Assembly: GCA_030606335.1 (NCBI GenBank)
Contig: JAUWGP010000001.1
Location: forward strand, 30,792-94,791
Source of the DNA: a candidate division WOR-3 bacterium
GTDB lineage: Bacteria; Hydrothermota; UBA3073
Direction of reading: 5' to 3'
Length of the DNA stretch: 64,000 bases
The notes under the pieces are model-generated. The model was not told the DNA's origin. It saw nothing but the letters and a program-made list of their open reading frames with translations, and made no database searches. Made by a program: the position numbers and the translations under genes. The stretch's first letter is position 1; each line of letters opens with the position of its first letter. Below are positions 2,014-56,190 of the stretch, piece after piece.

Positions 2014-2306
2014 AAACCCCCCTTTCTATAGAAAATCAAAAATGAAATATCAAAATGCAAAAATGAAAACAAAATTTAGAGACAAAAGACATAAAACAGG
2101 AGACAATTCATTTCAGTTTAGATTAAAGAAGCGGTATTGAATAAATTGTATCCACGCTTTCCTGACGGTAGGAAGGGAAGTCAGTAATTATGATTTAAAT
2201 TTTTCTTGTTCATAGCTGTCTGTTACATATGTGACATTCGTGTTTATAATTTTTGCAATTTTATATGTAATTTTAATATTTACATTTTAATTTTTAATTT
2301 ATCTTG

Positions 2307-3278
2307 TTACATTCCAAACGACAGAGATACACGATGAAGTTCTCCTGCCATATATTTATGGTCCTCATAACAGTAGTCCAACGTCGCCTGTGCCAGACGG
2401 AATCCTGCACCAACTGTAAATCCTCTTGAATTCTTTTCAGTATAGCCAGCCCTTAAGAAATAAGAGTCAAAAAGAGAATATTCCAGTCCGACTCCAAAGG
2501 TGGCAAACTGGTCTGATAGGTGTATTATATCTCCTGAAAGCGTTACCCTTGAACCAGGACTTGAATAAATATCTGCTGCGAACCCTCCCTGAAAAGTCAT
2601 TGGAAGAGGATAAGGCTGCGATATTACAGTTGCCCTCTCTCCCCTGTCTCTATCTTCATTCTCAAGGTCGACAATAAGTGCATCACCTGTGTAGTGCATA
2701 TCTGGTCCGAAGTTTCTCATTACAAATCCAAAACGAATGTTATACACACCTGTGTTGTAAACACCTCCAATATCAAAGGCAAGCCCAAAAGCAGAAACTT
2801 CTGCCAAATTCTGATTTATGCCCTTTACTGTAATACCCAGAGAGAACTTATCTGTCATCATTCTTGCATAAGTGATTCCAAGGACATAGTCATTACAGGA
2901 AAATGTATATCCTGTGCCCTCGGGTTCTTCTGCGGTAGTTTCCTCAATGTCCCCTGAAAGGAATGCTTCTATCCCAATCCCCACAGCTCCACTAGCAACT
3001 GGAAACACCGCGGCAAGATTCTCAAGACTTGTTTCTGCGAAGGCTCTGGTGTGTGTTAAATTTATAGACATGGTTCCTAAATTTGCCACCCCAGCAGGAT
3101 TCCAGTATATGCTCTGGATCCCCTCACCTATCGCTGAATATGCACCACCAAGGGCAACGGGTCTTGCTCCGCCCCCAATCGTCAGAAAGGAAGCACCTGC
3201 TCCACCAAGCTGTACACCAAATAGATACGGCACATTCACAGTCAGTATTAAAACGATTATTATGGATATTTTTTTCAT
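2307..3278 (-). CDS. PorV/PorQ-family outer-membrane beta-barrel
   Basis: Signal peptide; FLTIGGGARPVALGGAY, SIYWNPAG, FDIG, LRAGY motifs; C-terminal HRVSLSFGM. Confidence 0.85.
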   Translation of the reverse strand: MKKISIIIVLILTVNVPYLFGVQLGGAGASFLTIGGGARPVALGGAYSAIGEGIQSIYWNPAGVANLGTMSINLTHTRAFAETSLENLAAVFPVASGAVGIGIEAFLSGDIEETTAEEPEGTGYTFSCNDYVLGITYARMMTDKFSLGITVKGINQNLAEVSAFGLAFDIGGVYNTGVYNIRFGFVMRNFGPDMHYTGDALIVDLENEDRDRGERATVISQPYPLPMTFQGGFAADIYSSPGSRVTLSGDIIHLSDQFATFGVGLEYSLFDSYFLRAGYTEKNSRGFTVGAGFRLAQATLDYCYEDHKYMAGELHRVSLSFGM

Positions 3279-3370
3279 AACCTCCTCCTGGTATAATGTT
3301 CATTATACCTGATTACTCAGATTAAAATATAAATCTCTTTACTTGACAACTTTTATTACCAATCCGTTAG

Positions 3371-3517
3371 CTAACGGATAACTAATAATCCCTCTTGAGT
3401 AAGTGCTAATTTTAATGCATTATGGTATATCTTTTCATTAAACCCAAGTTCTAATTCTCTGTGAACCTTAAAACAGCAAGCTATTATTCGTTCTGTAAGT
3501 GGATCTCTATCCTTCAT
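3371..3517 (-). pseudogene. Internally deleted GxxExxY (PD-(D/E)xK-like) gene remnant
   Basis: Reads MKDRDPLTERIIACCFKVHRELELGFNEKIYHNALKLALTQEGLLV, then an 18-bp palindrome introduces TAG; the family C-terminus GNKSCQVKRFIF follows immediately (to ~3330). Confidence 0.75.
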
Positions 3518-3590
3518 CTGTGAAATCTAATTCTAATCAATGTAATCAGACATCCTGATCTTTATAGGACGTCTCTCAATGTGAGGTAGT

Positions 3591-5357: not shown

Positions 5358-5527
5358 CGTACCCCCAGTTAAAAATGTTAAATGAACAGGTTGAAAAGGA
5401 AAATTATCAATTACAAATTACCAATTTCCAATTAGGGATTAAACTCAATGATAAAGATGATTTTCAAATCCATAATACTTTTTACTTTTATATTTGATTT
5501 TTGATATTTGATATTTAATTTATTACC

Positions 5528-8854: not shown

Positions 8855-9000
8855 GTCATTTCAATCGTTAGCTAAACAATCTCATCACTTATTATCAATC
8901 CTTCCCAATATGAGATTGCTTCGACCTGATATTCATCAGTTCTCGCAATGACAGAAAGTAGTGTGTCATTGCGAGCGAACAAAGTGAGCGTGGCAATCCC
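8855..9000. repeat. REP/RPE-like palindromic repeat cluster (GTCATTGCGAG..GCAATC / GATTGC..CTCGCAATGAC)
   Basis: GAGATTGCTTCG..TCTCGCAATGAC followed by GTCATTGCGAGCG..GTGGCAATC; same family at ~15227, ~39906, ~55975, ~57030. Confidence 0.75.
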
Positions 9001-9050
9001 ATTTGTCTATAACTATCACTCCTTAAATGAGATTACCCATCTTAATATAA

Positions 9051-12065: not shown

Positions 12066-12410
12066 AATACCCCCTCATATAATATTAAAATTCAAATATT
12101 AAAAAATATAACCACAGATTAAACAGATAAATCTCTATGGAAAAGAGTAAATAAATTTAATCTGTGCCTATCAGTGAAATCCCTGTTTGCGGCAGGCAGG
12201 TGTGGCGGATCAAGGATTGCAAAGATAGTATTAAATCCATTGGAGTGCATCAGCTTGCTGATGCCACAATAAGTTGAAATAATACTTAAACCCTTTCGCC
12301 GTCTACAAATCCCTACGGTTCTGTATCGACAGGTAGAAAAGATTGTAAATAAAGGTCACTGGTCTCTTGTCTTATGTCTATGGTCTTTCTTTTTTAAATT
12401 TTCTTGTAAA

Positions 12411-14336: not shown

Positions 14337-14421
14337 AAGAAGGATTCAGGTTTTAGGTGTCAGTCTTGAGCGTTGTATGGAACTATAAAGTCCATTCAAC
14401 ATTTAACATTTAACATTTTAC

Positions 14422-15087
14422 CTATCTAAGCCTGTACATAAATGTAACTATTCCCTTCTGTGTCTCCTGAGGAAGATGGGTTGGTAGCCTCTCAAATTTC
14501 CATTCTTTCAATGCATCAAGGGTTATATGGCCAAATATATCTCCTCCTTTTTTGATAAGTATAAGCCTCTCTATCTCTCCATCTGGTGAAACCCAAATCT
14601 CGACCTTAACATCTGTTTCAATATTATATCCCTCGGGGTAGGGAGGAACAACCTTATAGACCACCCTTCTTTTCGATAACTCACCCTCAATTATATATGA
14701 TTCTCCTTGAGCAAACATTGGAGAGGGAATTTCCTTTTCTTCCTCCTTCCCAGGCAAGAAGACAGGTGGGAGTTCCTTCATTGGTGGTTTTTGTATAAAC
14801 TCTTCTTCTCCGCTTTCTTTAGCTATCGGGAGTTCAACAAGCTCCTTTTCAGGTCCTTGTTCCTCTGTAACAGGCACTTGATGAACTTTTATTATAGTTT
14901 TTTCAAATTGAGGGGATATTACCTGAGCATGCACCTCAGAAAGTAGTCCGACTTCGATAAATTCGGGTTCTGCAAAGTATATTCCAATATTTATAAAACG
15001 AAGTAGAGTAAGAATGATAATATGAAAGATAAGCGATATTATTAACCCTTTAGTAAGGTTAGACATTCTATTTTTAGGTTGTTCCAT
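14422..15087 (-). CDS. tonB: TonB-family energy transducer
   Basis: N-terminal TM with SLIFH (SxxxH) motif, Glu/Pro-rich linker, C-terminal PPYP..VKVEIWVSPDGEI..ALKEWKF domain. Confidence 0.75.
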   Translation of the reverse strand: MEQPKNRMSNLTKGLIISLIFHIIILTLLRFINIGIYFAEPEFIEVGLLSEVHAQVISPQFEKTIIKVHQVPVTEEQGPEKELVELPIAKESGEEEFIQKPPMKELPPVFLPGKEEEKEIPSPMFAQGESYIIEGELSKRRVVYKVVPPYPEGYNIETDVKVEIWVSPDGEIERLILIKKGGDIFGHITLDALKEWKFERLPTHLPQETQKGIVTFMYRLR

Positions 15088-15226
15088 AAAAATACCTCAC
15101 GAAGTTATGTTGAATAAAATTTGACGACAGACAAAAAACCTGAGACACAAGATTAAAATGAAAATTCATTTATTACTTGTTAAAGAATGTCAAAAACCCT
15201 CATGATAAGAGACTAAATGCCACCTG

Positions 15227-15405
15227 TCATTGCGAATATTAGCGAAACAATTGCATTCCTTAATACTAATCCCTAATATGAGATTGCTTCGTCGTCCGTC
15301 AACTGACGGACTCCTCGCAATGACCAAAAGGAGTATGTCATTGCGAGCGACCAACGGGAGCGTGGCAATCTCATCTTTAATATCCTTATTACCTCGCATT
15401 GAGTT
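15227..15405. repeat. REP/RPE-like palindromic repeat cluster
   Basis: GATTGCTTCGTCGTCCGTCAACTGACGGACTCCTCGCAATGAC and GTCATTGCGAGCGACCAACGGGAGCGTGGCAATCTC, near-identical to units at 39906-40012. Confidence 0.8.
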
Positions 15406-17048: not shown

Positions 17049-17177
17049 GAATGCTTATTTAAGTATAAAGTATAAATAGTACAAACAACAAATGGCATAC
17101 TGTAAGCAGTCCAAAGTCATTGGGTTATTGGTAGTATATAATCTAAAATCTACAATCTGAAATCTGAAATCTATTTC

Positions 17178-18167: not shown

Positions 18168-18208
18168 AGTTAAGCTGGTTATTAGTTATCGGTAATCAGT
18201 TATCAGGC

Positions 18209-18589
18209 TTACCGTTGATAACAAAATTGACTTGCTTTGTTAATCATTGAATTCAACATTCGTCCCACAGAAGCATAACGTTCTAACCAATCTTTACTCT
18301 GTGTTTCTGCAATGTAATCGCAATCACGAGCTGTTTCAATCCAATGTTGTGTCTCTTGCTGTTCCCCGTCAGCATCTGTTAATTTACTTACAAAATACTT
18401 CTCATAGCGACGTTTAGCCCAAGCTTCTGCAATTTGAGCACCAACAGAACGTGATGATCGTCTTATTTGATTAGTAAGCGAGAAAATTTCTTCCTTTGGG
18501 AAATTTTTTGAGACTTCTAAAATTTCCAGCGACAATTGACGAGCCAATTTGTAGATTTTTAAATCTCGAAAACTTTTTGCATGTTCCAT
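18209..18589 (-). CDS. Four-helix-bundle protein (23S rRNA IVP / bAvd-like family)
   Basis: SFRDLKIY, FPKEEIFSLTNQIRRSSRSVGAQIAE, EQQETQHW; sits between rnfC and rnfD and is flanked by inverted repeats. Confidence 0.92.
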   Translation of the reverse strand: MEHAKSFRDLKIYKLARQLSLEILEVSKNFPKEEIFSLTNQIRRSSRSVGAQIAEAWAKRRYEKYFVSKLTDADGEQQETQHWIETARDCDYIAETQSKDWLERYASVGRMLNSMINKASQFCYQR

Positions 18590-18637
18590 TTTTCTTTCTA
18601 CCGATTACTGATGACTGATAACCTATTACTAAACAAA

Positions 18638-20345: not shown

Positions 20346-20705
20346 TTAGGACGCAGATGCTCGCAGATTTTCAAGATTTTCTTTATTTCTTTTTCTTTGA
20401 TTATCAAAAGCTTTTCTTTTAATCTCAGGCTCAGGTCCGAAATTAAGTAAAAGACCTACTTCAATATCGGTTGCCCTTAAATAGTTTAATAGTTGCGCTT
20501 CGCTATCCTTAATCAACTTTTTGGTGGCTTTAATTTCTACCAATACTTTATTATCAACCAATATATCAGCACTATATTCTCCTATAATTTCTCTGTCGTC
20601 ATAATACACCTTTATAGGAATTTGTGATATAGCGGGTATTCCTTCTTTTTTAAACTCTATCATTAAGGCATTTTCATATACTTTCTCCAAAAACCCATAA
20701 CCCAA
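20346..20705 (-). CDS. GxxExxY protein (PD-(D/E)xK superfamily); 5' end possibly disrupted
   Basis: GFLEKVYENAL, ADILVDNKVLVEIKA, QLLNYLRAT..GLLLNFG; family-like sequence extends in frame to ~20789 (NAEKQDNDFKYKELTAKII) with no ATG. Confidence 0.85.
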   Translation of the reverse strand: MGYGFLEKVYENALMIEFKKEGIPAISQIPIKVYYDDREIIGEYSADILVDNKVLVEIKATKKLIKDSEAQLLNYLRATDIEVGLLLNFGPEPEIKRKAFDNQRKRNKENLENLRASAS

Positions 20706-20790
20706 CTTGTTATAAACCCTATAAAAAATCTCTATGATTTTTGCAGTTAATTCTTTATACTTAAAGTCATTATCTTGTTTTTCTGCGTTT

Positions 20791-20854
20791 ACCCTGTTAA
20801 ATAGAACTGTTTTATTAACTCTCTAATATTTATAGTAACATTATTTAACAGGGT
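20791..20854. mobile_element. 64-bp MITE-like insertion with 13-bp terminal inverted repeats
   Basis: ACCCTGTTAAATA..TATTTAACAGGGT interrupts the ACGCAGA repeat at the GxxExxY 5' end; related short copy at ~27760-27792. Confidence 0.6.
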
Positions 20855-20898
20855 GAATCTGCGTCCTAATTACATATGTATCTAATTTTTATCGATTA

Positions 20899-22245
20899 TT
20901 ATCTTATTAGAGTCAGCATTCTTCTGGCAATCTCAAAATAAATGCCAAGCGATATAACATCCATTATTGTAGTTAAAAATGGTCCTGACATAAGCGCCGG
21001 GTCAAGCTTCAACTTCTTGAAAAAAAGAGGTAAAAAACCACCAAGTGCTGTGGCTATCGCAACAGAAATAATCATGGTAGAACCAACGATAAACCCCACA
21101 GGAGAACCTCCTCCTGTAATAATTGCCCTTACTGCTGTAAGAAACCCGAGACCTAAGCCTACAAGTGCGCCAGTAAGGAACTCCCTACCAACAACCCTCC
21201 ATATATCCGATATCTTTACATCCCCGATTGCTATACCTCTCACTACGACAGCAGCAGCCTGTGTTCCTGCATTACCCCCTGTGCCCATTAAAACAGGTAT
21301 AAAACTTGCCAGAATAAGCATCAACTGAAGCGTTGATGAATAATACTCTATAACAAAACCTGATACAAATCCTGCGAAAACAAGTATAAGGAGCCAGGTT
21401 GCTCGCCTTTTCGCTGTTCCAAGTATACCTGCCGAGAAGTAACTATTAGGTGGATTCCCTGCAGCACCAAAGTGATACATATCTTCTGTATCCTCCTCCT
21501 CTATTACATCTATCACATCATCAACTGTAATAATTCCCTTTATAACCCCCTTTTTGTCTACTACAGGCATAGTAGTCACATCATATTTCGAAAAAAGGGA
21601 AACTACCTTTTCCTGATTACGGTCAATCTGGGTCTTTAAAATACCACCTTTCATAATTTTTCCTATTTGCTCTTCAGGTTTGTGCATTATAAGGTCTCTC
21701 ATTGTTATGAATCCAATGGGTCGCTCATGTCTATTCAGTACATAGATATCATAGACAAAATCAACGTCCTTCGCTGTCTCACGAATTTCCTTCACTGCAT
21801 CTCCAACAGTCATCCACTTATACACAGCAACATAATCAGTGGTCATAAGTCCGCCAGCAGTATCAGATGGATATGATAAAAGCTCCTTAACATCCTCTGC
21901 CTCCTCTTTCTCCATTATAGAAAGGTAGTATTTCTTGTGTTTTTCGTCCAGTTTTTCAAATAGGTCAGCACGTTCATCAGATGCCATTCGGTTGAGGATA
22001 GCAATCTTCTTCTTCCTGTCTATAACCTCGAGTATCTGGTTTTCTTTTTCCTCATCAAGCTGTTCAAATACGTCTATTGCGAGCTCAAAAGGCAGGAGAT
22101 TGAACACGTATAATATCTCTGGGATAGGAATTTGGTCAAAGATTTCCGCAATATCCTGCGGACTTACCTCAGTAAGAACATCCATTATGTCCTTATCTGC
22201 CCTATCCTCTATTAAATCTCTTATACCAGGAAGTAATATCGGCAT
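20899..22245 (-). CDS. mgtE: Magnesium transporter MgtE
   Basis: YPSDTAGGLMTTDY, CBS pair, GIITVDDVIDV, GGNAGTQ, DPALMSGPFLTTIMD. Confidence 0.96.
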   Translation of the reverse strand: MPILLPGIRDLIEDRADKDIMDVLTEVSPQDIAEIFDQIPIPEILYVFNLLPFELAIDVFEQLDEEKENQILEVIDRKKKIAILNRMASDERADLFEKLDEKHKKYYLSIMEKEEAEDVKELLSYPSDTAGGLMTTDYVAVYKWMTVGDAVKEIRETAKDVDFVYDIYVLNRHERPIGFITMRDLIMHKPEEQIGKIMKGGILKTQIDRNQEKVVSLFSKYDVTTMPVVDKKGVIKGIITVDDVIDVIEEEDTEDMYHFGAAGNPPNSYFSAGILGTAKRRATWLLILVFAGFVSGFVIEYYSSTLQLMLILASFIPVLMGTGGNAGTQAAAVVVRGIAIGDVKISDIWRVVGREFLTGALVGLGLGFLTAVRAIITGGGSPVGFIVGSTMIISVAIATALGGFLPLFFKKLKLDPALMSGPFLTTIMDVISLGIYFEIARRMLTLIR

Positions 22246-22546: not shown

Positions 22547-22674
22547 GAAAAAATTGATTATAAACAACACATATAACCCTTAATTTTAAAATGGTTCTTT
22601 AACCCCCTACTCAATTCTTTATTAACGTAGAAGAATTACCAATGACAAATAACTAATGACAAATAACTGAGTTG

Positions 22675-22730: not shown

Positions 22731-22746
22731 ATTTTTTCTACCCCTG

Positions 22747-26434: not shown

Positions 26435-26617
26435 AATAACCCCCATAAGATAAATTAAGAAATTAGATATCAAAATCATAGCCACAGATTACACAGATTT
26501 TTTAACAAGAATTACACGAATAAATTTTATTCGTGATAATTTGTCTAATTCGTAGTATTTGTGTTCTTATTATCTTGTGTAATCAGTGAAATCCGTGGCT
26601 TTTTTGGAATTTCGATA

Positions 26618-27559: not shown

Positions 27560-27828
27560 ATGCACCCCCTTGATTCAAACAACAAAAAATCAAAAAAACT
27601 TATGATCCTTTATATTCCTCGTTTAACGTTATCGAAACTGGTATCGAGGCTCGAACTTTTGATGCTCGAAGCTCGTCTAACTACGGAACTCATGTTGAAT
27701 GTCTTTTTCCAGTTTCAAGATTCCAGCTTCGAGTTTCGTTACGAGTTTCGCTACCGTTTATCCTGTGAAATTTCCTTCTATTTAACGGGGACAACCCAGT
27801 TTCGTTACCTTTTTTACGAAGTCCGGTT

Positions 27829-28827: not shown

Positions 28828-29143
28828 ACTAAAGTCTATCCAAATAATGTGTCTACAACACAGAAATCAATGACATAAATTATCACTTATCGGTAATCAG
28901 TAACTTCCAGAGCACATCAGGATACCGGTAAATCAGTAGGTAGGGTATCAGATTATCTGCATATCAGAACCTGATGCTCTGGTCTGCTGATATTCTTCCT
29001 ACTGATATACTGATTGGCTGATACACTTAATCTTTTTGTGCACCTCAAATGCTACCTCCATAATGTTGTAGGACAACTCTTTATGTACAATTCTATTATC
29101 TATTTGTGTAGATTCGTTTATTCGTGTCATTTGTGTTCTAAGT

Positions 29144-35122: not shown

Positions 35123-35213
35123 TCGTTTTGAATACATCACATATTATAATATTAATTATTGCTGTATGGGGTGCTTTTTGGTCTACAATTGAGAAAATAA
35201 AAAAGATATAGTT

Positions 35214-36023: not shown

Positions 36024-36106
36024 AGCTCCCATCACTCTCAAGAATATCGTGATATAAAAAATAAAATGAACTATCTTGGAGATCTATTGTCAATTCACAA
36101 TATAAA

Positions 36107-37339: not shown

Positions 37340-37393
37340 CACAAAAACGTTTTATATAGTTATTATTAAAAATATTTTATAACATACAAATTC

Positions 37394-38308
37394 ATGGAAA
37401 AAATTTGCGATAACTTGACAGAGATTGATAAATCAATTGACGAATTACCTTCAGCTGATTCTCTAAATTCGAATAACGACTTCATGTCGAGTTTGGTTAA
37501 GATAAGTAATAGTATTCTGTATTTGCTTAAACTTACAGCCAGTTTGGCACCAGACGAAAAAAGAGCCCAACGTGGGTATATAAGAAATCAAGCAATACTA
37601 GTAGGTTTATTTGTCCGTTTAACAAAACTCTACGAATGTTTGTTAGACAGTATGTGCAAAAATTGGGGAGAGATTGCTCAAATATTTTCACGTCTAATAT
37701 TTGAAACGAGGATAAAACTAGAATATTTAATGCAGTCGGGTCCCTCTTCATATAGAAGTTTTGTTATTTCATCCCTTCTCGCAGAAAAAGAAATACTGGA
37801 AGATATAGAAGCCAAAAAGAAAAAAGGATCGTTATTACCTATCGAAATAAGAATGCTTCGAAGTGTAAAAAATTGTATTCGTGAAGCTCGAATGTCAAAA
37901 AAGGAACTTCTAGCAATAAAAGGACCGAATCTCGACGGAAAAAATTTTAGGCAGATACTAAAAGATCTTGGTCAAGAACAAAATTATATATATGCATTTA
38001 GGACGCCCAGTCATCTCATACATGGGGATTGGGTCGATTTGTTGTTTAACCATTTACAGAAAGAAGGAAGATTTTATCATCCTAAAATAGAGCATAATAC
38101 CGCAGATCCACGGTTAATTGGACCTATTTCAATATCAATTCTCGATTTTCTCTTTAAATATATCAAAAAACTTCGGCTTAATGGTGACCATGTTATTGTA
38201 AATATCGCGAAAAGGCTGCGTGAAAAATTATTTGAAATTGAAGGGGCTCATGAGAGCTTTTTGCAAAAAAACCGTTTCAGTCCACCTAAATCATGTAACT
38301 TGTTATAA
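37394..38308 (+). CDS. DUF5677-like (HEPN-related) protein
   Basis: SRLIFETRIKLEYL and AFRTPSHLIHGDW motifs, all-helical character. Confidence 0.6.
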   Translation: MEKICDNLTEIDKSIDELPSADSLNSNNDFMSSLVKISNSILYLLKLTASLAPDEKRAQRGYIRNQAILVGLFVRLTKLYECLLDSMCKNWGEIAQIFSRLIFETRIKLEYLMQSGPSSYRSFVISSLLAEKEILEDIEAKKKKGSLLPIEIRMLRSVKNCIREARMSKKELLAIKGPNLDGKNFRQILKDLGQEQNYIYAFRTPSHLIHGDWVDLLFNHLQKEGRFYHPKIEHNTADPRLIGPISISILDFLFKYIKKLRLNGDHVIVNIAKRLREKLFEIEGAHESFLQKNRFSPPKSCNLL

Positions 38309-38359
38309 TAACACAACATAAGCTTTATTAAACAATTTTTCTCAATTATCGTAAAAAAC

Positions 38360-38520: not shown

Positions 38521-38740
38521 AGACATCCTATAAAGATCAGGATGTTGGATATCAATTACTTTCATATTTAAATGCTTCTAAATTTCATACTGGGTTATTA
38601 GTTATCCGTTAGCTAACGGATTGGTAATAAAAGTTGTCAGGTAAAGAGATTTGTAAATTAATCTGAGTAATTTTTTCCTAACTAAAGGTGTTGTGTAGTT
38701 AATATCTGGGTAATCAGGTATAATGAACATTATACCAGGG
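38521..38740 (+). pseudogene. GxxExxY C-terminal remnant within a dispersed repeat (inverse copy of 3285-3572)
   Basis: YQLLSYLNASKFHTGLLV-[ATCCGTTAGCTAACGGAT]-GNKSCQVKRFVN*; shares GACATCCTATAAAGATCAGGATGT and CAGGTATAATGAACATTATACCAGG flanks. Confidence 0.75.
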
Positions 38741-42439: not shown

Positions 42440-42790
42440 ATTGATGATTTTCGATTGAAGATTGACGATTGCATTCCAATTTATTTTCCTCAATAGTCAA
42501 TATTCAATTATTACTATTTCTCCCTCTTCCCCTCAATTTTACATTGCTAATTGCTAATTTTGCATTGATAATTGACTTCAACTTCCCTCTTCAGTCTTTC
42601 ATTATCGTCCGTCAAACGACGGACTCCTACTTTTAATTTACTATTTTCAATTGTCGATTTACGATTGCATTCCAATATCATTTAACCTAATCAACCAATT
42701 AACTTTTCAACTAATCAACTATTATCTCGTTTCACATTTAACATCTCACATTTAACATCTCACATTTAACATTTAACATCCAACACTAAA
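42440..42790. repeat. Stack of short-period degenerate repeats plus a GTAG-REP
   Basis: GATTGAC/GATTTTC, TTGCTAA, CAACTAAT and TTTAACATCTCACA periodic tracts; REP at 42601-42630. Confidence 0.7.
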
Positions 42791-42797
42791 CATTCTC

Positions 42798-43562
42798 TCA
42801 CCAAACAAGACTCCCTTTACCATAATGTCCTGCGTTTTCTATACAGTTTGATACAAATCTTTTAGCCTTCTCTATTGATGATAAAAGGTTATTGCCTAAT
42901 GCAAGATATGAGACTATTGCCGATGCATAGCAACATCCTGCGCCGTGTACCTGCACATCTAATCTTTCACCAGAGAAGTGTCTTACTCTTTCACCATCAA
43001 ATAGGACATCAACAGCCTTTTTCTCAACAAGGTGTCCGCCCTTTATCAAAACAGGTTTTTTACAGAATCTAAATATTTTCTTCGCTGCCTTTTCAGCATC
43101 CTCAATCCCATCTATCTCTATACCTGATAACAATGAAGCCTCCATCCTATTTGGTGTAGAAATGGTAGCGATGGGAAAAAGACTCTCAAGCATTTCAGAG
43201 ACAGCACCATTCTCAAGGAGAGAGTAACCTGTTCCTGAGACCATAACTGGGTCGACAACGATATAATCTGGTTTATGAAATTTTAATCTCTCCACTACTG
43301 TAAGAATTATAGATTTATCATAGAGTATACCCGTCTTTACTGCCGAGACTTTCAAGTCATCAAACACTGTATCGATCTGTTCTTTTATGAAAGATGTCGG
43401 AATAGGAAGGATATTTCTTATACCCATGGTATTCTGTGCAGTAAGGGCAGTCAGGCAGGATGCACCATAAACACCAATCGATTCAAAAGTCTTTATATCT
43501 CTTTGGACGCCAGCCCCTCCAGAAGAATCGGAACCAGCGATGGTCAAAACCACAGGATGCAT
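42798..43562 (-). CDS. thiD: Hydroxymethylpyrimidine/phosphomethylpyrimidine kinase
   Basis: [35 protein letters not shown]. Confidence 0.95.
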
Positions 43563-43722
43563 AAGTAGATAGTAAGGCGTAAATTGTAATTGGTTATAAA
43601 AGCATATCAGAATACCAGAGAATCAGAAGGCAGATTACCAGAGTATCAGAACCTGATGTACTGATTGACTGATACCCTTCCAACTGATATTCTGATTGGC
43701 TGATATACAAAAGGATAGGTCA

Positions 43723-44634
43723 TTATTCTATACTTACTGTAATATGGTGTGAATTACCGAGGTCGTATTCAAATGGAAGATATGCATAATCGAATGTATA
43801 GTTGCTATAATTAATTCCAAAGCCAAATGAGGCATCTTTTGAATCAAATCCAAATCTTTTACCCATTCTAAGAGTTATATATGAATTTAGTGAATACTCC
43901 ACACCAAAGCTTGATGTAAGAACCTCATCAAGTGCCTTTCTAAAAGAAGCCGAAAACCCGAATTTCTTAATCTCATAACCGCTGCTGAAGTTGAATGTTA
44001 GAGGAAGTCTTATAGGAGTCGAACCATCTATATTATAACTTGGTCGAGGTCCTATATTCGTAGCAACAAAGGAAACATAAAGGTTATTAATAGGAACGTA
44101 ATTAAACCCTAAGTCCACTGCATATCCCTTAAGGCTGTAAACATAACATCTCTCGTAAATATATTTATATGTTCCCCCAAGCCAAACCTCACCCATCTTT
44201 CTTGCATAAGATAAATAAGAGACCAGACTAAAAGGAGAATAGTCTCCATATAAAGCCTGTCTCGAATCTCTTAACTCGATATCGCCTGCTGAGAAATAAA
44301 TAGAACCAACACCAAAGCCATGTTTACCATCACCCCATACTACTCCTGCAAACTCATATCTTGTACCTATAACCTGTGATGTATGAGAGAACGTAGCGCT
44401 AAGACCTGATACCAGTGGAATCTGAGAAGGATTCCAGAAGAGCAAAGTGGCGTCCCTTGATAGAATACCACCTCCAAGTGCAAGGTTTCTGGCACCCACT
44501 TCAAGTTTCAGTAATGGTAAACCTACACCGTCACTCTTCGATTTAAAAAATTCCTTTATGTCATTTATAATACCTGCCTGACTTACACCACAAAAGAGAA
44601 TAACAATAACCGCTAATAATCTTAAATAACGCAT
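43723..44634 (-). CDS. PorV/PorQ-family outer-membrane beta-barrel
   Basis: GARNLALGG, LFWNPS, VDLG, FDYAY..LGNSHHITV. Confidence 0.8.
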   Translation of the reverse strand: MRYLRLLAVIVILFCGVSQAGIINDIKEFFKSKSDGVGLPLLKLEVGARNLALGGGILSRDATLLFWNPSQIPLVSGLSATFSHTSQVIGTRYEFAGVVWGDGKHGFGVGSIYFSAGDIELRDSRQALYGDYSPFSLVSYLSYARKMGEVWLGGTYKYIYERCYVYSLKGYAVDLGFNYVPINNLYVSFVATNIGPRPSYNIDGSTPIRLPLTFNFSSGYEIKKFGFSASFRKALDEVLTSSFGVEYSLNSYITLRMGKRFGFDSKDASFGFGINYSNYTFDYAYLPFEYDLGNSHHITVSIE

Positions 44635-44643: not shown

Positions 44644-45627
44644 TTAAATAAAATGTTTAATTAACTTCTCAATCACAACATCTGTGGTAATGTTCTCTGC
44701 CTCTGCAGCAAAGTTCAATATGAGTCTATGCCGTAATACTGGTTTTAATACGGAATTAACATCCGACATTGATGGCGTGGTTCTTCCGTCCAGTAGTGCC
44801 TTTGCCTTTGCTCCTAATACAACATATTGAGATGCCCTTGGAGAGGCTCCCCATGTAACCCACTCTTTTATAAACTTTGGTTTTTCCGAATTATTAGAGG
44901 GTCTTGTAAGACCAATTAATTTTACAACATCACTCACCAGACTATTAGATACCGGAACTCTACGAACAAGATTTTGTAGCTCGAGTATCTCATTCCTACC
45001 AATAACTGAATTAATCTCATTCACGTAAGCACTGGTTGTTGTCTCAACAATCCTAACCTCTTCATCTGGTTCTGGATAATCTATCACTACCTCGAACATA
45101 AATCTATCGAGCTGTGCCTCAGGAAGTGGATATGTTCCTTCTTGCTCAATCGGGTTTCTGGTCGCAAGAACAAAGAACGGTTGCTCAAGCTGAAACGTAT
45201 GTCCTCCTGCGGTAACTTTGAACTCCTGCATTGCCTGCAGAAGAGCTGCCTGGGTCTTCGGAGGTGTTCTGTTGATTTCATCAGCCAGGATCATATTAGC
45301 AAATATAGGACCCTTCAAAAATCTGAATTCTCTTTTTCCAGTTTTCCTCTCCTCCTCCAGTATCTCTGTCCCTGTTATATCCGAGGGCATAAGATCTGGA
45401 GTAAATTGTATCCTCTGAAAAGAAAGAGAAAGTGTTCTTGAAAGCGTATTTATTATAAGAGTTTTAGCAAGTCCTGGTACACCAAGAAGGAGTGAATGCC
45501 CTCCTGCAAGAAGTGAGATAAGTATCTGCTCTATCACCTTATCCTGTCCTATGATGACCTTATGCAGCTCTTTCAGGATTTTTTCCTTTGCAGTTCCCAG
45601 TTTCTCTATGCTCTCAACATCACTCAT
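44644..45627 (-). CDS. MoxR-family AAA+ ATPase
   Basis: GVPGLAKT, RIQFTPDLMPSD, DEINR, NPIEQEGTYPLPEAQLDRF. Confidence 0.95.
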   Translation of the reverse strand: MSDVESIEKLGTAKEKILKELHKVIIGQDKVIEQILISLLAGGHSLLLGVPGLAKTLIINTLSRTLSLSFQRIQFTPDLMPSDITGTEILEEERKTGKREFRFLKGPIFANMILADEINRTPPKTQAALLQAMQEFKVTAGGHTFQLEQPFFVLATRNPIEQEGTYPLPEAQLDRFMFEVVIDYPEPDEEVRIVETTTSAYVNEINSVIGRNEILELQNLVRRVPVSNSLVSDVVKLIGLTRPSNNSEKPKFIKEWVTWGASPRASQYVVLGAKAKALLDGRTTPSMSDVNSVLKPVLRHRLILNFAAEAENITTDVVIEKLIKHFI

Positions 45628-45759
45628 CTATCCCCCGTGATATTGTGACAATAATATGTTCTGATTTAAAAAAATATACTTCTCTCTTAAAATCTCTTTC
45701 CTGCCTACCGGCAGGCAGGCAATCCCTGTATAAACAATATCTTTTCTTTTCGAAAAAAC

Positions 45760-45788
45760 ATTATATACCAATTTTCAGGAAATGTCAA
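45760..45788 (-). promoter_or_regulatory. Sigma70-type promoter for moxR operon
   Basis: TTGACA-N17-TATAAT. Confidence 0.65.
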
Positions 45789-45851
45789 GGAAAAAGTATT
45801 AGGGGAAAATCTATTACCTTTCTTTATATCCTTTTTGGTCTCATTTTTTTC

Positions 45852-45880
45852 TTGACTTTTTGTAAATTTTATGTTAAACT
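45852..45880 (+). promoter_or_regulatory. Sigma70-type promoter for rpsG operon
   Basis: TTGACT-N17-TAAACT with TG extension. Confidence 0.55.
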
Positions 45881-46063
45881 AATATGCAAAAAAATCGAAT
45901 ATCATTATAAATTTTAAATGAATAAACATTCACAGATATCCTTTAAAAAATAGGGGTACCTGAGTGGATTGTTATATATTTTAGTAATAAAATCTTCAGA
46001 TAGAGAAATATACATCTTAATCTGAGTAATCAGGTATAATGAATATTATACCAGGAGGTTTTC

Positions 46064-48496: not shown

Positions 48497-48970
48497 ATGA
48501 ATGCTGTTGTAGAAATAGCTGGATTTCAGTACAGAGTTAGCAAACATAAGATATTTAATGTACCCAAACTCGATGCAAAGGAAGGTGAGGTAATTCGTAT
48601 ATCAACAGTACTTGCGGTCTCTAATGACAATGATGTTAAAGTAGGAAATCCTTTTCTTGATAATGCCTATGTAGACGCAAAGGTTCTCAAGTTTGGCAAA
48701 GACCCAAAAATACTCGTATATAAATACAAAAAAAGGAAAAAGTATAGAAGAATGAAGGGGCATCGTCAGGATTATACCCAAATAGAGATAGTAAATATAG
48801 GAATTAAGGAAAAGGTTGTAGAAAAAAGGAAAGAACCCAAACAAACTAAATCAACCAAAGAAACTAAATCAACCAAACCAACTAAAAAAACTAAATTAAC
48901 CAAATCAACCAAACAAACTAAAGAAACTAAACAAACCAAATCAACCAAACCAACTAAAGAATTACTGTAG
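48497..48970 (+). CDS. rplU: 50S ribosomal protein L21 with K/T-rich repetitive tail
   Basis: AVVEIAGFQYRV, YKKRKKYRRMKGHRQDYT; upstream of rpmA. Confidence 0.95.
   Translation: MNAVVEIAGFQYRVSKHKIFNVPKLDAKEGEVIRISTVLAVSNDNDVKVGNPFLDNAYVDAKVLKFGKDPKILVYKYKKRKKYRRMKGHRQDYTQIEIVNIGIKEKVVEKRKEPKQTKSTKETKSTKPTKKTKLTKSTKQTKETKQTKSTKPTKELL
48836..48960 (+). repeat. 9-bp-period tandem repeat encoding (K-x-T)n
   Basis: About 13 degenerate AAA-NNA-ACY units. Confidence 0.85.
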
Positions 48971-50004: not shown

Positions 50005-50817
50005 GTGATTATGAAATATTCCATCTACAATTCTCCCCTTGGAAAGCTATATATTGTAGCCACAAATAATGGCATATGTAGATTGGATTGGGATGTGATA
50101 AGGTTTCAGAAAAATCTACCAGTGAATTCAAATCTGACAAAGGACATATTTCCTGGCTTTGGTCGAAGTCTTGACTTATATTTCAGGGGTTATAGAGAAG
50201 ATTTCGATTATCCTTTAGACCTTATTTATCTATCCCCATTTACAAGGACAGTTTTGAGAGAGATAAAACAAATACCCTATGGCAAAACGAAGAAATACAG
50301 TGCATTATCAGTTCTTATCGGAAGACCTGGCGCACAAAGGGCTGTAGCAAATGCAGCAGGAAGAAATCCCATACCAATCATCATACCATGCCATAGAGTC
50401 ATTGGAAAAGAAAGTCTGGGTGGATATAGTGGTGGTATAGGAACGAAATTATGGTTACTAAATCTTGAGAAGTCTGGAATATTTCATGAAATCGTTTCTA
50501 TTATAACCAGACTAAGACAAGAGTGTCCCTGGGACAGTATACAAACCCATGAATCACTTATACCTTACATAAAAGAGGAATGTGAAGAGGTCATTAGTGC
50601 TATTAAAGAAAAAAAATATCTTAAAGAAGAGCTTGGCGACTTACTTTTACAGGTTTTACTGCAGTCAGAGATAGCTAAAGACTTCAATATACTCGATGTA
50701 TGTGAGGTGCTTGCTAGCAAACTAAAAACTCGCCATCCTCATATATTTGGTAATATGAAGGCAAGTACACCTGAAGAAGTAAGAAAAATATGGGAAGAGG
50801 TAAAGAGGAACAATTAA
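50005..50817 (+). CDS. Methylated-DNA--protein-cysteine methyltransferase fused to a MazG NTP-pyrophosphohydrolase domain
   Basis: IPYG, RAVANA, NPIPIIIPCHRV, GGYSGG then CPWD..QTHESL..EECEEV..EELGDLLLQV..RHPHIF. Confidence 0.9.
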   Translation: MIMKYSIYNSPLGKLYIVATNNGICRLDWDVIRFQKNLPVNSNLTKDIFPGFGRSLDLYFRGYREDFDYPLDLIYLSPFTRTVLREIKQIPYGKTKKYSALSVLIGRPGAQRAVANAAGRNPIPIIIPCHRVIGKESLGGYSGGIGTKLWLLNLEKSGIFHEIVSIITRLRQECPWDSIQTHESLIPYIKEECEEVISAIKEKKYLKEELGDLLLQVLLQSEIAKDFNILDVCEVLASKLKTRHPHIFGNMKASTPEEVRKIWEEVKRNN

Positions 50818-50889
50818 CAATTCAAAATTAGCAATTAGCAAGTTAAAATGACAGAAGGGAAAGAACATAGACTAAGGACTAAGGGGAGG

Positions 50890-51030
50890 GTAGGAGCAAC
50901 GTCCCCGTTGCGATAATTTAATCGGGGTTAGGAAACCCCTCCTACTGAAAAGAGAAGGTAGGAGTCCGTCGTTTGACGGACGATAATAGGTAGGAGCAAT
51001 GTCTCTACCTGTCGGAAGACAGGCATGTTG
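50890..51030. repeat. BIME-like cluster of GTAGGAG REP units
   Basis: Four GTAGGAG/CTCCTAC-initiated hairpins, including one inverted unit. Confidence 0.75.
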
Positions 51031-53132: not shown

Positions 53133-53424
53133 TGCTTTTAAATTAACCACAGATGACACAGATAATAAAGATTTTTTGGACATATATCAACTCTAATTTA
53201 TACTGATTGTAATTTCTATTTTCAAATAAGAAAATAATCGCTTATTTACGTGTGCTTATCTTCATTTTCCTGAATGAAATTTCTATATATTGCAAAAAAT
53301 ACCAAGTCTCACTTACATTGAACAGAAAAAAACATATTCTTGTTATTATCAAATTACTTTATGTGGAAAATAAAAAAATACTCTGTCTACTCTGCGTTCT
53401 CTGTGGTTTAGACAAGGGAGAACT

Positions 53425-54996
53425 ATGAAAAATAAACCTATTATCATAGATGGCAGTTCACTAACGATTGAAGATATCATCAAGGTTGCACGGTATAATG
53501 TAAAGGTCTTACTCTCTCCTTCAGCCAGAAATAAATGCAAGGATAGTCTAAAATGGATAGAAAAGAAGGCTCAGGGTGAACATACCATCTACGGAGTCAA
53601 TACAGGATTCGGTTCAAAGGAAAGGGTTAGAGTTGCACCTAATGAACTGCAGAATCTGCAAAAAAATCTCATACTCTCCCACTCCGCTGGTGTCGGTGAA
53701 ATTATGGATAAAGAGACAGTTCGAGCAATGATGCTTCTCAGGGCAAATGCTCTATCAGTAGGTTTCTCCGGAGTCAGACCTCTCTTGATAGATAATATCC
53801 TTACTCTCCTTAATAATAATGTACACCCTATTGTTCCCCAAAAGGGGTCTGTTGGAGCATCCGGTGATCTTGCTCCACTGGCACATCTTGCACTTCTGCT
53901 ACTGGGTGAGGGTAATGCATTTATAGGAGAGAAAAAAACCCCTGCAAAGAAGGCATTAAATCATGCAGGTGTTGTTCCCATATCTCTTGGTCCAAAAGAA
54001 GGGCTTGCACTTATAAATGGAAATCAACTTTCCACAAGCATAGGCATAATAACACTTTTCGACTTCCTCCACCTGTTTAATACTACTCTAACTTCTGCCA
54101 GCCTTGCTCTTGAGGCACTACTTGCACATAAAGACGCATTCAGCCCTGAATACCTCAGAGCAAGACCACATGAAGGTATTATGGAGGTTTCAAAATGCAT
54201 AACAAGTCTTCTTGAAGGTAGTCAACTTATCAATACCGATAAAGAACACATACAGGATGCATATTCACTGCGTTGCATACCGCAGGTTTATGCTACAGTA
54301 CTCTCCTCTTACAATTGGGTAAAAGGTGTGCTCGATGTCGAAATCAATTCAGCCACTGATAACCCACTTATATTTCCAAAATTAAATAGGGTTATCTCAG
54401 GTGGTAACTTCCACGGTGAACCTATCGCTGTAGCAATGGACCTTCTTGGTATAGCCATCTCTAATCTTGGTAATATAACAGAAAGGCAAATAATGAGGCT
54501 CGTATCATCGTTCCTATCAAAAGGTCTCCCTTCCTTCCTGGCAAAGCGGGAGGGATTGGAAAGTGGATATATGATAGCTCAGTATTCAGCAGCCGCACTT
54601 GTATCTGAGAATAAGCTCCTCACACACCCAGCATCCTCCGATTCAATCCCAACTTCAGAAGACCAGGAAGACTATGTAAGCATGGCACCAATTGCAGCAA
54701 GAAAGGCAAGAGAAATATTCAAAAACACAAGGACCATAGTAGCCATCGAGCTCTTGTGTTCGGCAGAGGCAGTTGATATAAGAACAAAGGAAGACTATTC
54801 CCTTCTTGGTAAAGGCACAAGGGTAGTCCAGGAATTAATACGAGAAAAAGTACCACCGCTTAATAGAGACAGAATAATAAGTGATGATATAAAGACAGCT
54901 GAGGAATTGATTGAAAAAGATATAATTTTTAAAGGAATAAAAGATAAAGGAATTACCCTCCCTTTTTTGGGAATGCCTAATATATTTACTCTATAG
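53425..54996 (+). CDS. hutH: Histidine ammonia-lyase
   Basis: YGVNTGFG, GSVGASGDLAPL (MIO), QDAYSLRC, DNP, SGGNFHG. Confidence 0.93.
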   Translation: MKNKPIIIDGSSLTIEDIIKVARYNVKVLLSPSARNKCKDSLKWIEKKAQGEHTIYGVNTGFGSKERVRVAPNELQNLQKNLILSHSAGVGEIMDKETVRAMMLLRANALSVGFSGVRPLLIDNILTLLNNNVHPIVPQKGSVGASGDLAPLAHLALLLLGEGNAFIGEKKTPAKKALNHAGVVPISLGPKEGLALINGNQLSTSIGIITLFDFLHLFNTTLTSASLALEALLAHKDAFSPEYLRARPHEGIMEVSKCITSLLEGSQLINTDKEHIQDAYSLRCIPQVYATVLSSYNWVKGVLDVEINSATDNPLIFPKLNRVISGGNFHGEPIAVAMDLLGIAISNLGNITERQIMRLVSSFLSKGLPSFLAKREGLESGYMIAQYSAAALVSENKLLTHPASSDSIPTSEDQEDYVSMAPIAARKAREIFKNTRTIVAIELLCSAEAVDIRTKEDYSLLGKGTRVVQELIREKVPPLNRDRIISDDIKTAEELIEKDIIFKGIKDKGITLPFLGMPNIFTL

Positions 54997-55021
54997 TCAA
55001 TTCGCATTTTTAAAGAAATCC

Positions 55022-55783
55022 ATGAAACAAATTGATTGTGAACATCTTTACCGTGATGGACGATACTATGACCTCGAAAATGAGGATTTTGTAGATGATA
55101 TCCCCTTCTACCTGCATCAGATTGAGAAATACGGCGAGCCTGTTCTTGAACTGGCTTGTGGGACAGGAAGGATTACCATTCCTATAGCCCAAAAGGGAAT
55201 TCAAATCACAGGACTGGATATATTAGACTCTATGCTCAATCATGCTAAGAGAAAGGCAACAAATAAAGGTGTTAATGTCGAATGGATTAAGGCTGATTGC
55301 AGAGATTTCAGATTAAATAAGAAATTTAATCTTATATTTTCCCCATTCAACTCAATAGCCCATCTTCATGATTTGGAAAGTATTAAAGCCTGTTTTTCCT
55401 GTGTAAAAGAACATTTAATGGATAATGGTAGATTTATCATTGATTTCTTTAATCCCAGTCTAAACATTTTAACGAGAGACCCAACCAAGCGCTATCCTGT
55501 AAAAGAGTATCCTGATCCTGATGGGAAAGGTCAGGTTGTTATTACAGAAAATAATATTTATGATGTTGCCAACCAGATAAACAGGGTTAAATGGTACTAC
55601 AAGATTGGCAGCCAGTCAGAGGAGGTTGTAGAAGATTTGAACATGAGAATTTTCTACCCCCAGGAACTTGATGCACTTCTATATTATAATGGTTTCACTA
55701 TTGAGAATAAATATGGTAATTATGATGAAACTCCTTTTATATCTGCATCGCCAAAACAGCTAATAGTTTGCCATAAACATTAA
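55022..55783 (+). CDS. Class I SAM-dependent methyltransferase
   Basis: VLELACGTGRI, GLD, ADCRDF. Confidence 0.9.
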   Translation: MKQIDCEHLYRDGRYYDLENEDFVDDIPFYLHQIEKYGEPVLELACGTGRITIPIAQKGIQITGLDILDSMLNHAKRKATNKGVNVEWIKADCRDFRLNKKFNLIFSPFNSIAHLHDLESIKACFSCVKEHLMDNGRFIIDFFNPSLNILTRDPTKRYPVKEYPDPDGKGQVVITENNIYDVANQINRVKWYYKIGSQSEEVVEDLNMRIFYPQELDALLYYNGFTIENKYGNYDETPFISASPKQLIVCHKH

Positions 55784-55863
55784 TAGAACGATATCAACAA
55801 ACAACAGGATTATCTAAATAGATATAACAGGAACTATAAAGATTCTTTTAATAAAATCTATTC

Positions 55864-56190
55864 AACAGGGATTGGAAGAGATCTGTATGAGATTCTAAAA
55901 ACAAAGAAATTTTCTTATCACTTAAAATTCTCTTATTTGCCTCAAGCAAATCCCTGTTTAACACAACTTTCCTGTCATTGCTAGTCCATACGGGCTAAGC
56001 AATCTCTTGTTTTTTAACAGGGATTGAAAGAGATTTAAATAAAGAATAATAAAATCATTTATCTCTTTAGATTCTCTTTATTTACCTGCGTAAAGCAGGT
56101 AAATCCCTGTTTAATAAAGTGTATTTGCCATTGCGAATCCGTCGTCCGTCAAGAAGTACGACGGATTGACGGATGAAGCAATCTCATCTA
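55864..56190. repeat. Two AACAGGGATT..AATCCCTGTT inverted-repeat units interleaved with GTCATTGC REP-like units
   Basis: Visible duplicated hairpin-ended units at ~55864-55960 and ~56015-56110. Confidence 0.65.

Follow-up and report, generated by a model that had tools for sequence, protein, structure and literature searches.

What fills the gaps between neighbouring operon genes in a candidate division WOR-3 bacterium? The question is raised by a 64,000-nt stretch of DNA, the window (G000:C19:30792-94791), from a metagenome-assembled genome (MAG), G000, of 2.43 Mb in 59 contigs, 90% complete and with ~37% G+C. A first-pass annotation, made from the letters alone, had marked 13 tracts of short-period repeats here and read them as 'empty' inverted-repeat cassettes of a transposase-free element system, possibly serving mobility or mRNA processing, with several repeat 'dialects' each tied to a small cargo gene. 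All 13 tracts do lie between called genes, and each carries a periodic array and/or a hairpin, but an inverted cassette is present in only nine. We consider that the tracts probably belong to a large, fast-turnover population of selfish elements in operon gaps, in which gene-bearing cassettes decay to gene-less hairpins.

For decades, heptamer repeats have been recorded from cyanobacteria, Xanthomonas, Beggiatoaceae and Bacteroidetes, with origin and function unexplained. PF05635 and PF13366, the two families to which the cargo proteins belong, are very large, and we know of no role or activity for either. In the genus studied here, heptamer repeats form the arms of small cassettes and, in three cases, the decay products of cassettes, and both puzzles become testable: is a repeat bound or cut by the protein that it accompanies, and is the cassette moved thereby? 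There is also a practical side, as the elements break MAG assemblies and yield spurious open reading frames (ORFs) and gene fusions.

Genes were called by a crude longest-ORF script (at least 80 aa; 1932 genes, 84% coding) and not by a gene finder, so all intergenic statistics carry that caveat. Tandem arrays were taken from Tandem Repeats Finder (TRF) at a score of at least 30, and fold z-scores compare RNA folding with 100 dinucleotide shuffles. The baseline for array enrichment was Markov-shuffled intergenic DNA, and for inverted repeats it was mirror-repeat controls. G000, G002 and G001 represent one genus (completeness 90%, 94% and 83%), G003 and G004 represent sister genera, and strains were compared by aligning contigs of the metagenome runs X2, X3 and X4 to the window.

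Filled, empty and gene-less cassettes

Between rnfC and rnfD lies a filled four-helix-bundle cassette (18168..18637, minus strand), whose gene (18209-18589; PF05635, E 1.1e-31) is enclosed by inverted GGTAATCAG-type heptamer arms at 18178-18206 and 18590-18632. An empty allele of this junction was found in contigs 98-99% identical to the window: 18190 is joined to 18633 with five letters between, and the whole 442-nt cassette is gone. Two runs from different studies support the joint, X2 (depth 60, side 255) and X3 (depth 19, side 255), and X4 shows it weakly (side 30). In G002, whose RnfD is 99% identical to that of G000, the four-helix-bundle gene is present with a 103-nt internal deletion. 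Across four distant genomes the rnfC|rnfD gap measures just 14-41 nt; within the family its content varies between the four-helix-bundle cassette, a second and unrelated one with GCTATCA arms, heptamers without a gene, and a type-A hairpin, likewise gene-less, with a CGATCAC array.

The comparison with G002 extends this to the rest of the window. Genes are 93-99% identical and the alignment breaks at the spacers, which are replaced far faster than the adjoining genes diverge. Of the 13 tracts, four are missing from G002 or have other sequence in their place, one is expanded there by 374 nt, six are conserved and two are partly different. Thus 252 nt at 2055-2306 face 33 nt, and 230 nt at 27598-27827 face 6 nt; at 43565-43738 the G002 junction has a different hairpin, of TTTGATA dialect and 273 nt; 139 unrelated nt stand in place of 53134-53415, and 50877-51029 is exchanged for 191 unrelated nt. 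The expansion, composed of composite arrays and REP-like hairpins, sits inside the AACATTT array at 14393..14418. Outside the flagged tracts, a cassette remnant at 3302-3585 is precisely absent from G002 (284 nt vs 1 nt), and a filled type-A GxxExxY cassette at 20349..20899 (minus strand; arms GGACGCAGATnnnCGCAGAT ... TCTGCGTCC; gene ~20415-20789; PF13366, E 1.4e-39) corresponds to 317 nt with an inverted arm fragment and other repeats. Conversely, the gap between obg and a cytidylyltransferase gene, 68 unrelated nt in the window, is filled in G002 by a four-helix-bundle cassette of 570 nt. At this site (G002 L094:8516-9364) the cytidylyltransferase ORF runs via a heptamer arm into the four-helix-bundle gene as one 282-aa frame, so the insertion of a cassette can fuse genes or mislead annotation. 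A further 589-nt insertion (G002 L094:4404-5006), absent in the window, lies at window position 13648 between amidohydrolase and radical-SAM genes and carries a 200-aa ORF of IS200/RAYT-like appearance. Presence/absence alleles are established by these data, both between near-identical strains and against G002, and this is the polymorphism that the first-pass annotation had said plain low-complexity DNA would lack.

We also see elements caught between the filled and the gene-less state. At 3302..3585 (minus strand) lies a type-C GxxExxY cassette with an internal deletion and a 41-residue gene remnant (PF13366 fragment, 3377-3499). It matches the filled type-C cassette on contig C56 with 91% identity over 190 nt and 96% over 102 nt, and lacks only positions 289-469 of that cassette, whose gene spans positions 176-481. 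The nearly gene-less type-C cassette at 38521..38739 (plus strand) keeps positions 101-130 and 423-574 of the same parent, and at G000:C48:14022-14230 we find 128-142 nt aligned to the 3' part of type-A cassettes. Because all three retain pieces of the gene, they derive from filled forms: they are internal-deletion derivatives, steps in the decay of filled cassettes to gene-less ones. Relatives, too, have many truncated matches to PF05635 and PF13366.

Two flagged tracts are themselves gene-less versions of known cassettes. The type-B element at 26480..26600 consists of arms only, with a ~100-nt interior (z -4.3/-7.2; kept in G002), and matches both ends of the filled type-B cassette on contig C48, in register, at 20/20 and 23/26 nt. 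At 55864..56113 (flagged as 55864-56110) stand two tandem gene-less type-D elements (AACAGGGATTGRAAGAG ... AATCCCTGTT), facing pairs with loops of 84 and 85, whose arms match the filled type-D GxxExxY cassette on contig C11 (z -7.2/-6.0). The view of the tracts as gene-less cargo cassettes is therefore borne out for these two and for the three deletion derivatives, but not for all tracts; some of the others belong to dispersed hairpin families, such as a 139-nt ATCAGnnn hairpin with 21 near-full copies and the element at 27630 with 32 non-self matches.

The reverse order of events would have gene-less arrays and hairpins pre-exist, with cassettes of matching dialect integrating into them by homology or protein-guided recombination, so that empty sites precede filled ones. 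This would account for the ~2 units of the cassette's dialect that the empty rnf allele retains beside rnfD, for the 374-nt composite within an AACATTT array that is uninterrupted in the window, for the repeated occupation of the rnfC|rnfD junction by different cassettes, and for the polarity of the single arrays (G-rich, C-poor mRNA), which the upstream arm of the four-helix-bundle cassette shares. We nevertheless regard it as an unlikely general order, since the three gene-less elements that hold cargo-gene pieces came from filled forms, and since the obg/CTP-transferase junction, filled in G002, has no array among the 68 nt of the window.

As to the relation of arms and cargo, the genome holds nine PF05635 matches at eight loci and 13 PF13366 matches. 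Periodic flanks were found at all eight four-helix-bundle loci, and an upstream 7- or 8-nt array with a reverse-complement array downstream at seven of them, the remnant on contig C25 having the downstream array only; the repeat unit of these arms varies from copy to copy. Most GxxExxY genes likewise lie between inverted periodic arms, of types that we label A to G. In an unbiased scan, flank complementarity of at least 20 was seen for 23 of 1891 genes, compared to seven in the mirror control and ten with random partners, and cargo genes are prominent among the 23. GxxExxY proteins that share an arm type are close relatives (82-89% identity among the four of type A, 86% for type C and 76% for type D), while the others are 30-47% identical.

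The same linkage is seen across phyla. Homologs 64-84% identical to the four-helix-bundle protein of the window occur in Gemmatimonadota, Nitrospirota, Bacteroidota, Planctomycetota, Chloroflexota and others, and within this clade inverted flanks were found at 48/75 loci against 2/75 in the mirror control. A second clade, represented by the copy on contig C41, has inverted flanks at 48/73 loci against 1/73, with AGAC-type units in close homologs and GGCTTGA in distant ones. Heptamers of the form GT[AGT]A[TC]C flank 36/75 loci of the first clade and 0/73 of the second. The linkage of arm to protein clade is thus established, within the genome for GxxExxY and across phyla for the two four-helix-bundle clades, in agreement with the proposal that dialect follows cargo. 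The core of the unit is kept at a protein divergence that would randomise neutral DNA, which suggests selection on the unit sequence.

The label 'transposase-free' did not survive as a general description. Arms of the form GGGTCAGG...CCTGACCC, which also hold heptamers, enclose three Y1_Tnp (RAYT-like) genes, and the same design recurs as 18 gene-less pairs and one more pair of 1235 nt without listed cargo; this family is a known REPIN-RAYT-type system within the same genome. Moreover, GxxExxY itself has a PD-(D/E)XK nuclease fold.

From these observations we favour a mechanism in which the source forms would be cassettes of ~450-550 nt, with a small gene between two inverted arms of 7-8-nt units, encoding a four-helix-bundle '23S-IVS' protein, a GxxExxY PD-(D/E)XK protein or, in the parallel family, a Y1/RAYT transposase. 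Such elements would occupy the gaps from stop codon to ribosome site in operons of this genus. Gene and arms would move together between genomes, even between phyla, and cassettes would be gained and lost at operon junctions. Internal deletion would leave gene-less hairpins able to outnumber filled copies, as REPINs outnumber RAYTs, and the single strand-oriented heptamer arrays found alongside may be remnants or landing pads. The encoded protein would recognise its own repeat unit.

A bolder version of this proposal is offered only tentatively: four-helix-bundle '23S-IVS' proteins, and in parallel GxxExxY nucleases, could be sequence-specific readers of their own 7-8-nt unit, with one pentamer subunit per unit, in keeping with the 4-5 units most common in arrays. 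A gene with its inverted arrays would in that case be a new class of transposase-free mobile cassette, with the STRR, TAACTGA and GGGNATC repeats of various phyla as its decay products and landing pads. The nearest solved homolog of the four-helix-bundle protein of the window is PDB 2rld, deposited with five chains, and the Xanthomonas S23p protein is a homopentameric ring, as cited in the accessible part of Warrier et al. 2016 (PMC4990558). A PDB sequence search with the GxxExxY protein of the window gave no match.

Single arrays, their orientation and their dialects

Short-period arrays are abundant throughout the genome. We counted 283 intergenic period-7 arrays against 25 in shuffled DNA (~11-fold), with 160 vs 30 for period 8, 119 vs 9 for period 14 and 35 vs 2 for period 21. 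Period-7 arrays number 306 in noncoding and 130 in coding DNA, and the noncoding ones have a length mode of 4-5 units (146/542). Reverse-complement repeat pairs are also in excess (146 vs 50 mirror-repeat controls), and 57 facing CCACAGA...TCTGTGG (type-B) pairs were found genome-wide. Arrays are present in 326 of the 1033 co-directional junctions of at least 40 nt, at a density per kb of 2.36 in co-directional, 1.8 in convergent and 1.12 in divergent junctions.

Could all of this be slippage-prone simple-sequence DNA, with arrays arising in place in AT-rich spacers and with no mobility or link to small genes? Slippage does occur, as one 7-nt unit (CTGGTCT) has been gained after position 12358, within a TGGTCTN array, in runs X2 and X3, so unit number varies in this way too; 92% of arrays lack a match to resident cargo dialects, and 4/13 tracts are simple single arrays. 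It does not explain composite multi-copy elements with defined ends (the 139-nt hairpin in its 21 near-full copies and the 57 type-B pairs), the precise presence or absence of whole elements, one protein clade flanked by the same unit across phyla, or the period-7 enrichment with its peak at 4-5 units. Plain slippage is thereby largely refuted, and we hold it to be very improbable as the source of the tracts.

Single arrays follow a strong rule of orientation and position. At co-directional junctions, AACATTT-type arrays are sense in six cases and antisense in 118, and AACTAATC arrays in four and 26, respectively. They start a median of 57 nt past the upstream stop codon (40/118 within 30 nt) and a median of 220 nt ahead of the next start codon. 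Pooled sense-strand GC skew is +0.39 in arrays compared to +0.08 in other intergenic DNA; of 532 arrays, 301 exceed +0.33, 102 fall below -0.33 and 129 lie between. The rule is newly found in this genome, and agrees with the abstract of Rehm et al. 2015 (PMC4692102). Rho is present in the genome, and the bias may reflect selection against C-rich, Rho-loading sense RNA inside operons.

A rule of this kind, together with the higher density of arrays at co-directional than at divergent junctions, is also what would be expected of RNA-level elements, whether processing sites like the 23S rRNA intervening sequence (IVS) cut by RNase III, 3'-end stabilisers, or arrays bound by a post-transcriptional regulator, with families reflecting function and not mobility. 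Precedents are the Coxiella IVS, described with an S23p ORF, GACAGAT heptamers and RNase III cleavage in the accessible part of its report (PMC4990558), and the TAACTGA repeats, for which the accessible part of another proposes a role as regulator sites (PMC4679880). Against such a function, RNase III was not detected in the genus: PF00636 was not found in G000, G002 or G001, nor PF14622 in G000, though PF00636 was found in the sister genera G003 and G004. In 178 stems at co-directional junctions, sense-strand G:T and A:C mismatches are equally frequent (82 vs 83), giving no G.U bias, and the sense-strand fold z is stronger in three hairpins and weaker in three. The tracts have no Rfam match, and they are exchanged for unrelated sequence where flanking genes are 93-99% identical, unlike conserved regulatory sites. 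An RNA-level function as the main explanation therefore seems to us doubtful, and the mRNA-processing system suggested by the first-pass annotation is not supported. The mismatch counts and the lack of an RNase III match lead us to favour DNA as the substrate, presumably as a hairpin or cruciform in single-stranded DNA.

Not every dialect has a cargo gene in G000. Taking a match of at least 20 nt at no less than 85% identity to a cargo flank as a shared dialect, only 65 of 789 noncoding arrays share one with resident cargo, and the commonest dialects (AACATTT, AACTAATC and TTTGATA) have no resident four-helix-bundle or GxxExxY gene. The idea that each dialect is tied to a small cargo gene thus fails for most arrays in this genome, but some orphan dialects have four-helix-bundle genes in sister genomes: AACATT is found with L272 (a pseudogene) and L280, TTTGATA/AAAATCA with L271, L281 and L282, and TTAGTTGG with L270, whose dialect matches a gene-less hairpin at a non-syntenic site of G000. 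The gene-less hairpin at G000:C28:93276-93412 was considered as the same site as a four-helix-bundle cassette of the same dialect on G002:C20, and was rejected as such because the flanks differ.

Several observations weigh against the proposal of selfish, decaying cassettes. The share of arrays with a resident dialect is below the 22% +/- 10% that the flanks of 21 random genes give over 30 draws, and the commonest dialects, AACATTT and AACTAATC, are almost never paired as hairpins. The placement rule for single arrays (6 vs 118; median 57 nt) would fit an RNA-level function just as well. Cargo genes are co-oriented with their neighbours in 17/19 cases, which is not clearly above the ~70% expected. 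The empty 18190->18633 allele is compatible with loss or with never having been inserted, and the three precise junctions inspected (3302/3585, 27598/27827 and 18190/18633) show neither a target-site duplication nor a conserved target. Compensatory pairs in the ATCAG hairpin number three, against 0-4 in slid controls, and this covariation is uninformative because the copies are close relatives. Finally, gene calls were crude and only incomplete MAGs were compared. In short, decay forms, filled/empty alleles and dialect-cargo linkage uphold the mobility reading of the first-pass annotation in part, and its scope was overstated, because most arrays are orphan oriented singles, a transposase-bearing parallel exists and RNA processing is unsupported.

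Elements and surroundings of the window

TRF found period-7 (or 8/14) arrays in seven of the 13 tracts (2030, 5400, 14395, 17142, 27630, 42440 and 50812) and a period-23 array in one (43602); at the score used, no array was returned for the remaining five (12081, 26480, 28887, 53145 and 55864). Strong folds (z <= -3.5 on at least one strand) characterise six tracts (26480, 27630, 28887, 42440, 43602 and 55864) and moderate ones (z -2 to -2.8) three (2030, 12081 and 53145). The other four (5400, 14395, 17142 and 50812) do not fold above shuffles, and are single tandem arrays with no facing arm. ORFs that overlap tracts, at 27560-27859, 27690-27893 and 29014-29295, have no Pfam family match. An Rfam scan of the window at gathering thresholds returned tRNA-Asp only, with no tract match and no rRNA.

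The single arrays are the simplest forms. At 5400..5522 there are two heptamer arrays, AATTACC and TTTGATA, found by TRF and without a hairpin (z +0.7/+1.1), which are kept in G002. The AACATTT-type array at 14393..14418 (plus strand; period 7, 3.7 copies; no fold) sits 3 nt past the stop of the gene at 14422-15087(-), reading AAAUGUU on the mRNA strand. The AATCTRA array at 17140..17173 (period 7, 4.9 copies; kept in G002) has a dialect in common with the right arm of the four-helix-bundle cassette on contig C37. At 50809..51029, three REP-like hairpins, each with GTAGGAG before it, come after a single AACAATT array (TRF and sequence).

Facing arms are seen at 2030..2300, where the AAAATSA/TTTGATA dialect forms an inverted pair (C19:32830-32855 / 33040-33065, score 16) with a 184-nt loop; TRF reports period 7 at 2032-2075 and 2257-2300, the fold z is -2.3/-2.4, and the tract is polymorphic between genomes. 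Type-B-like arms form an imperfect hairpin at 12081..12206 (ACCACAGATTAAACAGAT ... ATCTGTG; z -2.1/-2.8), which has a 22-nt match to a type-B cassette arm and is kept in G002, and a facing pair at 53145..53410 (AACCACAGAT ... TCTGTGGTT; 254-nt interior; z -2.7/-2.0).

The dispersed hairpins include the gene-less TCGAAAC-dialect element at 27598..27827 (z -5.3/-3.1), to which the 32 non-self matches belong. The ATCAGnnn octamer hairpin at 28887..29025, with GGTAATCAGT heptamers before it, is the 139-nt element with 21 near-full-length copies (minimum free energy -37 to -44, z -4.3 to -6.5; 30 consensus pairs, 95.7% paired). The identity between positions 18186 and 28887 that the first-pass annotation had pointed out is real, as the window has exactly two occurrences of the 15-mer TTATCGGTAATCAGT against 0.01 expected. 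A related ATCAGnnn hairpin lies at 43602..43708 (z -3.5/-6.4; 60 non-self matches). The tract at 42440..42794 is a composite of inverted TTGAWGA arrays, a REP-like GTAGGAG hairpin, a AACTAATC array and an AACATTT array, the last ending 3 nt past the stop of the gene at 42798-43562(-); it has 436 non-self matches and a z of -4.9 on the plus strand. Elements of the same kind lie beyond the flagged 13, namely those at 3302-3585 and 38521-38739 and two at ~8880-9035 and ~15210-15380. The latter (8880-9035 and 15210-15380) are copies of a dispersed palindromic element (TGTCATTGCGAG ... GGCAATCTCAT) that has many copies in G002, and a 69-aa ORF without family match (15190-15399) lies inside one TGTCATTGCGAG ... 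GGCAATCTCAT copy.

The gene families of the window point to a bacterium of the Fibrobacteres-Chlorobi-Bacteroidetes (FCB) type, with PorV-like proteins, a type IX secretion system (T9SS) sorting domain, TonB-dependent receptors and the Rnf operon, and on these grounds a cyanobacterial source, which the heptamers might suggest, was rejected; the best public matches to RnfD are just 56-58% identical. GC skew and gene orientation flip at ~45600-46060, from minus strand and negative skew to plus strand and positive skew, and cumulative GC skew has its minimum there; this could mark an origin of replication, or no more than the boundary between divergent operons. A low-complexity C-terminal tail of ribosomal protein L21 (gene 48497-48970) is encoded by a terminal 9/18/36-nt tandem repeat of ~13 units (48837-48961). 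Defence-type islands at 22651-22747, 34873-38317 and 57218-59103 differ from G002, which carries an additional 8.1 kb at the first; the methylase/Mrr and DUF5677 region is non-homologous between the two genomes, and the window also encodes Fic, MNT-HEPN and MjaI-type restriction-modification genes.

Comparison with known systems

REPIN-RAYT systems pair REP doublets that form hairpins with REP-associated tyrosine transposases (Bertels and Rainey 2011, PMC3116915). As far as the accessible part of that description goes, the likeness lies in a single-copy gene within its own inverted repeats, many extragenic gene-less hairpins, and one repeat type per gene lineage. Gene-less dispersed inverted doublets are indeed present here (the 146 vs 50 pairs, the 21 ATCAG copies and the 57 type-B pairs). 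However, the arms are tandem 7-8-nt arrays and not one GC-rich palindrome, and the cargo linked to the tracts is a four-helix-bundle or GxxExxY PD-(D/E)XK protein and not an HUH/Y1 transposase. A cognate Y1/HUH gene was found for the GGGTCAGG family only, which has no member in the window and whose arms occur in none of the 13 flagged tracts. The tracts thus fall outside REPIN-RAYT systems because their cargo is not a Y1 transposase.

The 23S rRNA IVS of Coxiella and Leptospira is closer in its cargo. In the accessible part of Warrier et al. 2016 (PMC4990558), the IVS comprises an S23p ORF, a 28-bp terminal stem and a variable number of GACAGAT heptamers, and is excised by RNase III; the authors call the Coxiella IVS a selfish element whose ORF decays and whose heptamer number differs between strains. 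An S23p/PF05635 ORF in the loop of complementary termini, with heptamers just upstream, is also what we see at 7/8 loci. The cassettes lie between protein-coding genes, for example rnfC/rnfD, and not in helix 25/45 of 23S rRNA, and as they are not in rRNA the tracts are not IVSs. Further differences are that RNase III, the enzyme of IVS excision, went undetected in the genus, and that gene-less and GxxExxY versions are absent from the accessible IVS description. Our literature search, which did not extend to subscription journals, found no paper on GxxExxY or four-helix-bundle genes as hairpin-flanked cassettes outside rRNA, between ordinary genes.

The Ssn nuclease specifically recognises a short repeat (NTS/SRM) in single-stranded DNA (Chenal et al. 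2025, PMC11893778). The accessible part of that work describes a small nuclease gene and a short repeat in hundreds of intergenic copies, as here. Ssn is a GIY-YIG enzyme, whereas the cargo here belongs to PF05635 and PF13366 (four-helix-bundle or PD-(D/E)XK).

Like miniature inverted-repeat transposable elements (MITEs), the tracts are short, gene-less and multi-copy, with terminal inverted repeats, and some elements are internal-deletion derivatives of a gene-bearing parent. Unlike MITEs, they show no target-site duplication at three junctions, and the parent has no recognised transposase.

A descriptive match exists with the intergenic heptamer repeats. The STRR heptamer repeats of cyanobacteria were reportedly described by Mazel in 1990, and small dispersed repeats by Elhai in 2008. 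TAACTGA repeats are reported from Beggiatoaceae, Cyanobacteria and Bacteroidetes (MacGregor 2015, PMC4679880), and GGGNATC repeats from Xanthomonas and Nostoc (Rehm et al. 2015, PMC4692102); the latter, by their abstract, lie between aligned ORFs, are rare between divergent ones and have the G-rich strand sense just past stops. As in the accessible parts of these descriptions, 7-nt repeats are enriched in noncoding DNA (283 vs 25; noncoding 306 vs coding 130), prefer ~4 units and are patchy across phyla. Their placement between aligned ORFs (2.36 vs 1.12), G-rich sense (301 vs 102) and position after stops (median 57 nt) also agree, and the four-helix-bundle arms of the window include the TAACTGA unit itself. 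The terms S23, 23S and 'four helix' are never used in the accessible part of MacGregor 2015 (PMC4679880). The tracts of the window therefore fit the description of the heptamer-repeat families; where the accessible reports treat such repeats as regulatory or structural, here they flank cassette genes as inverted arms, and the cassettes occur as filled and empty alleles.

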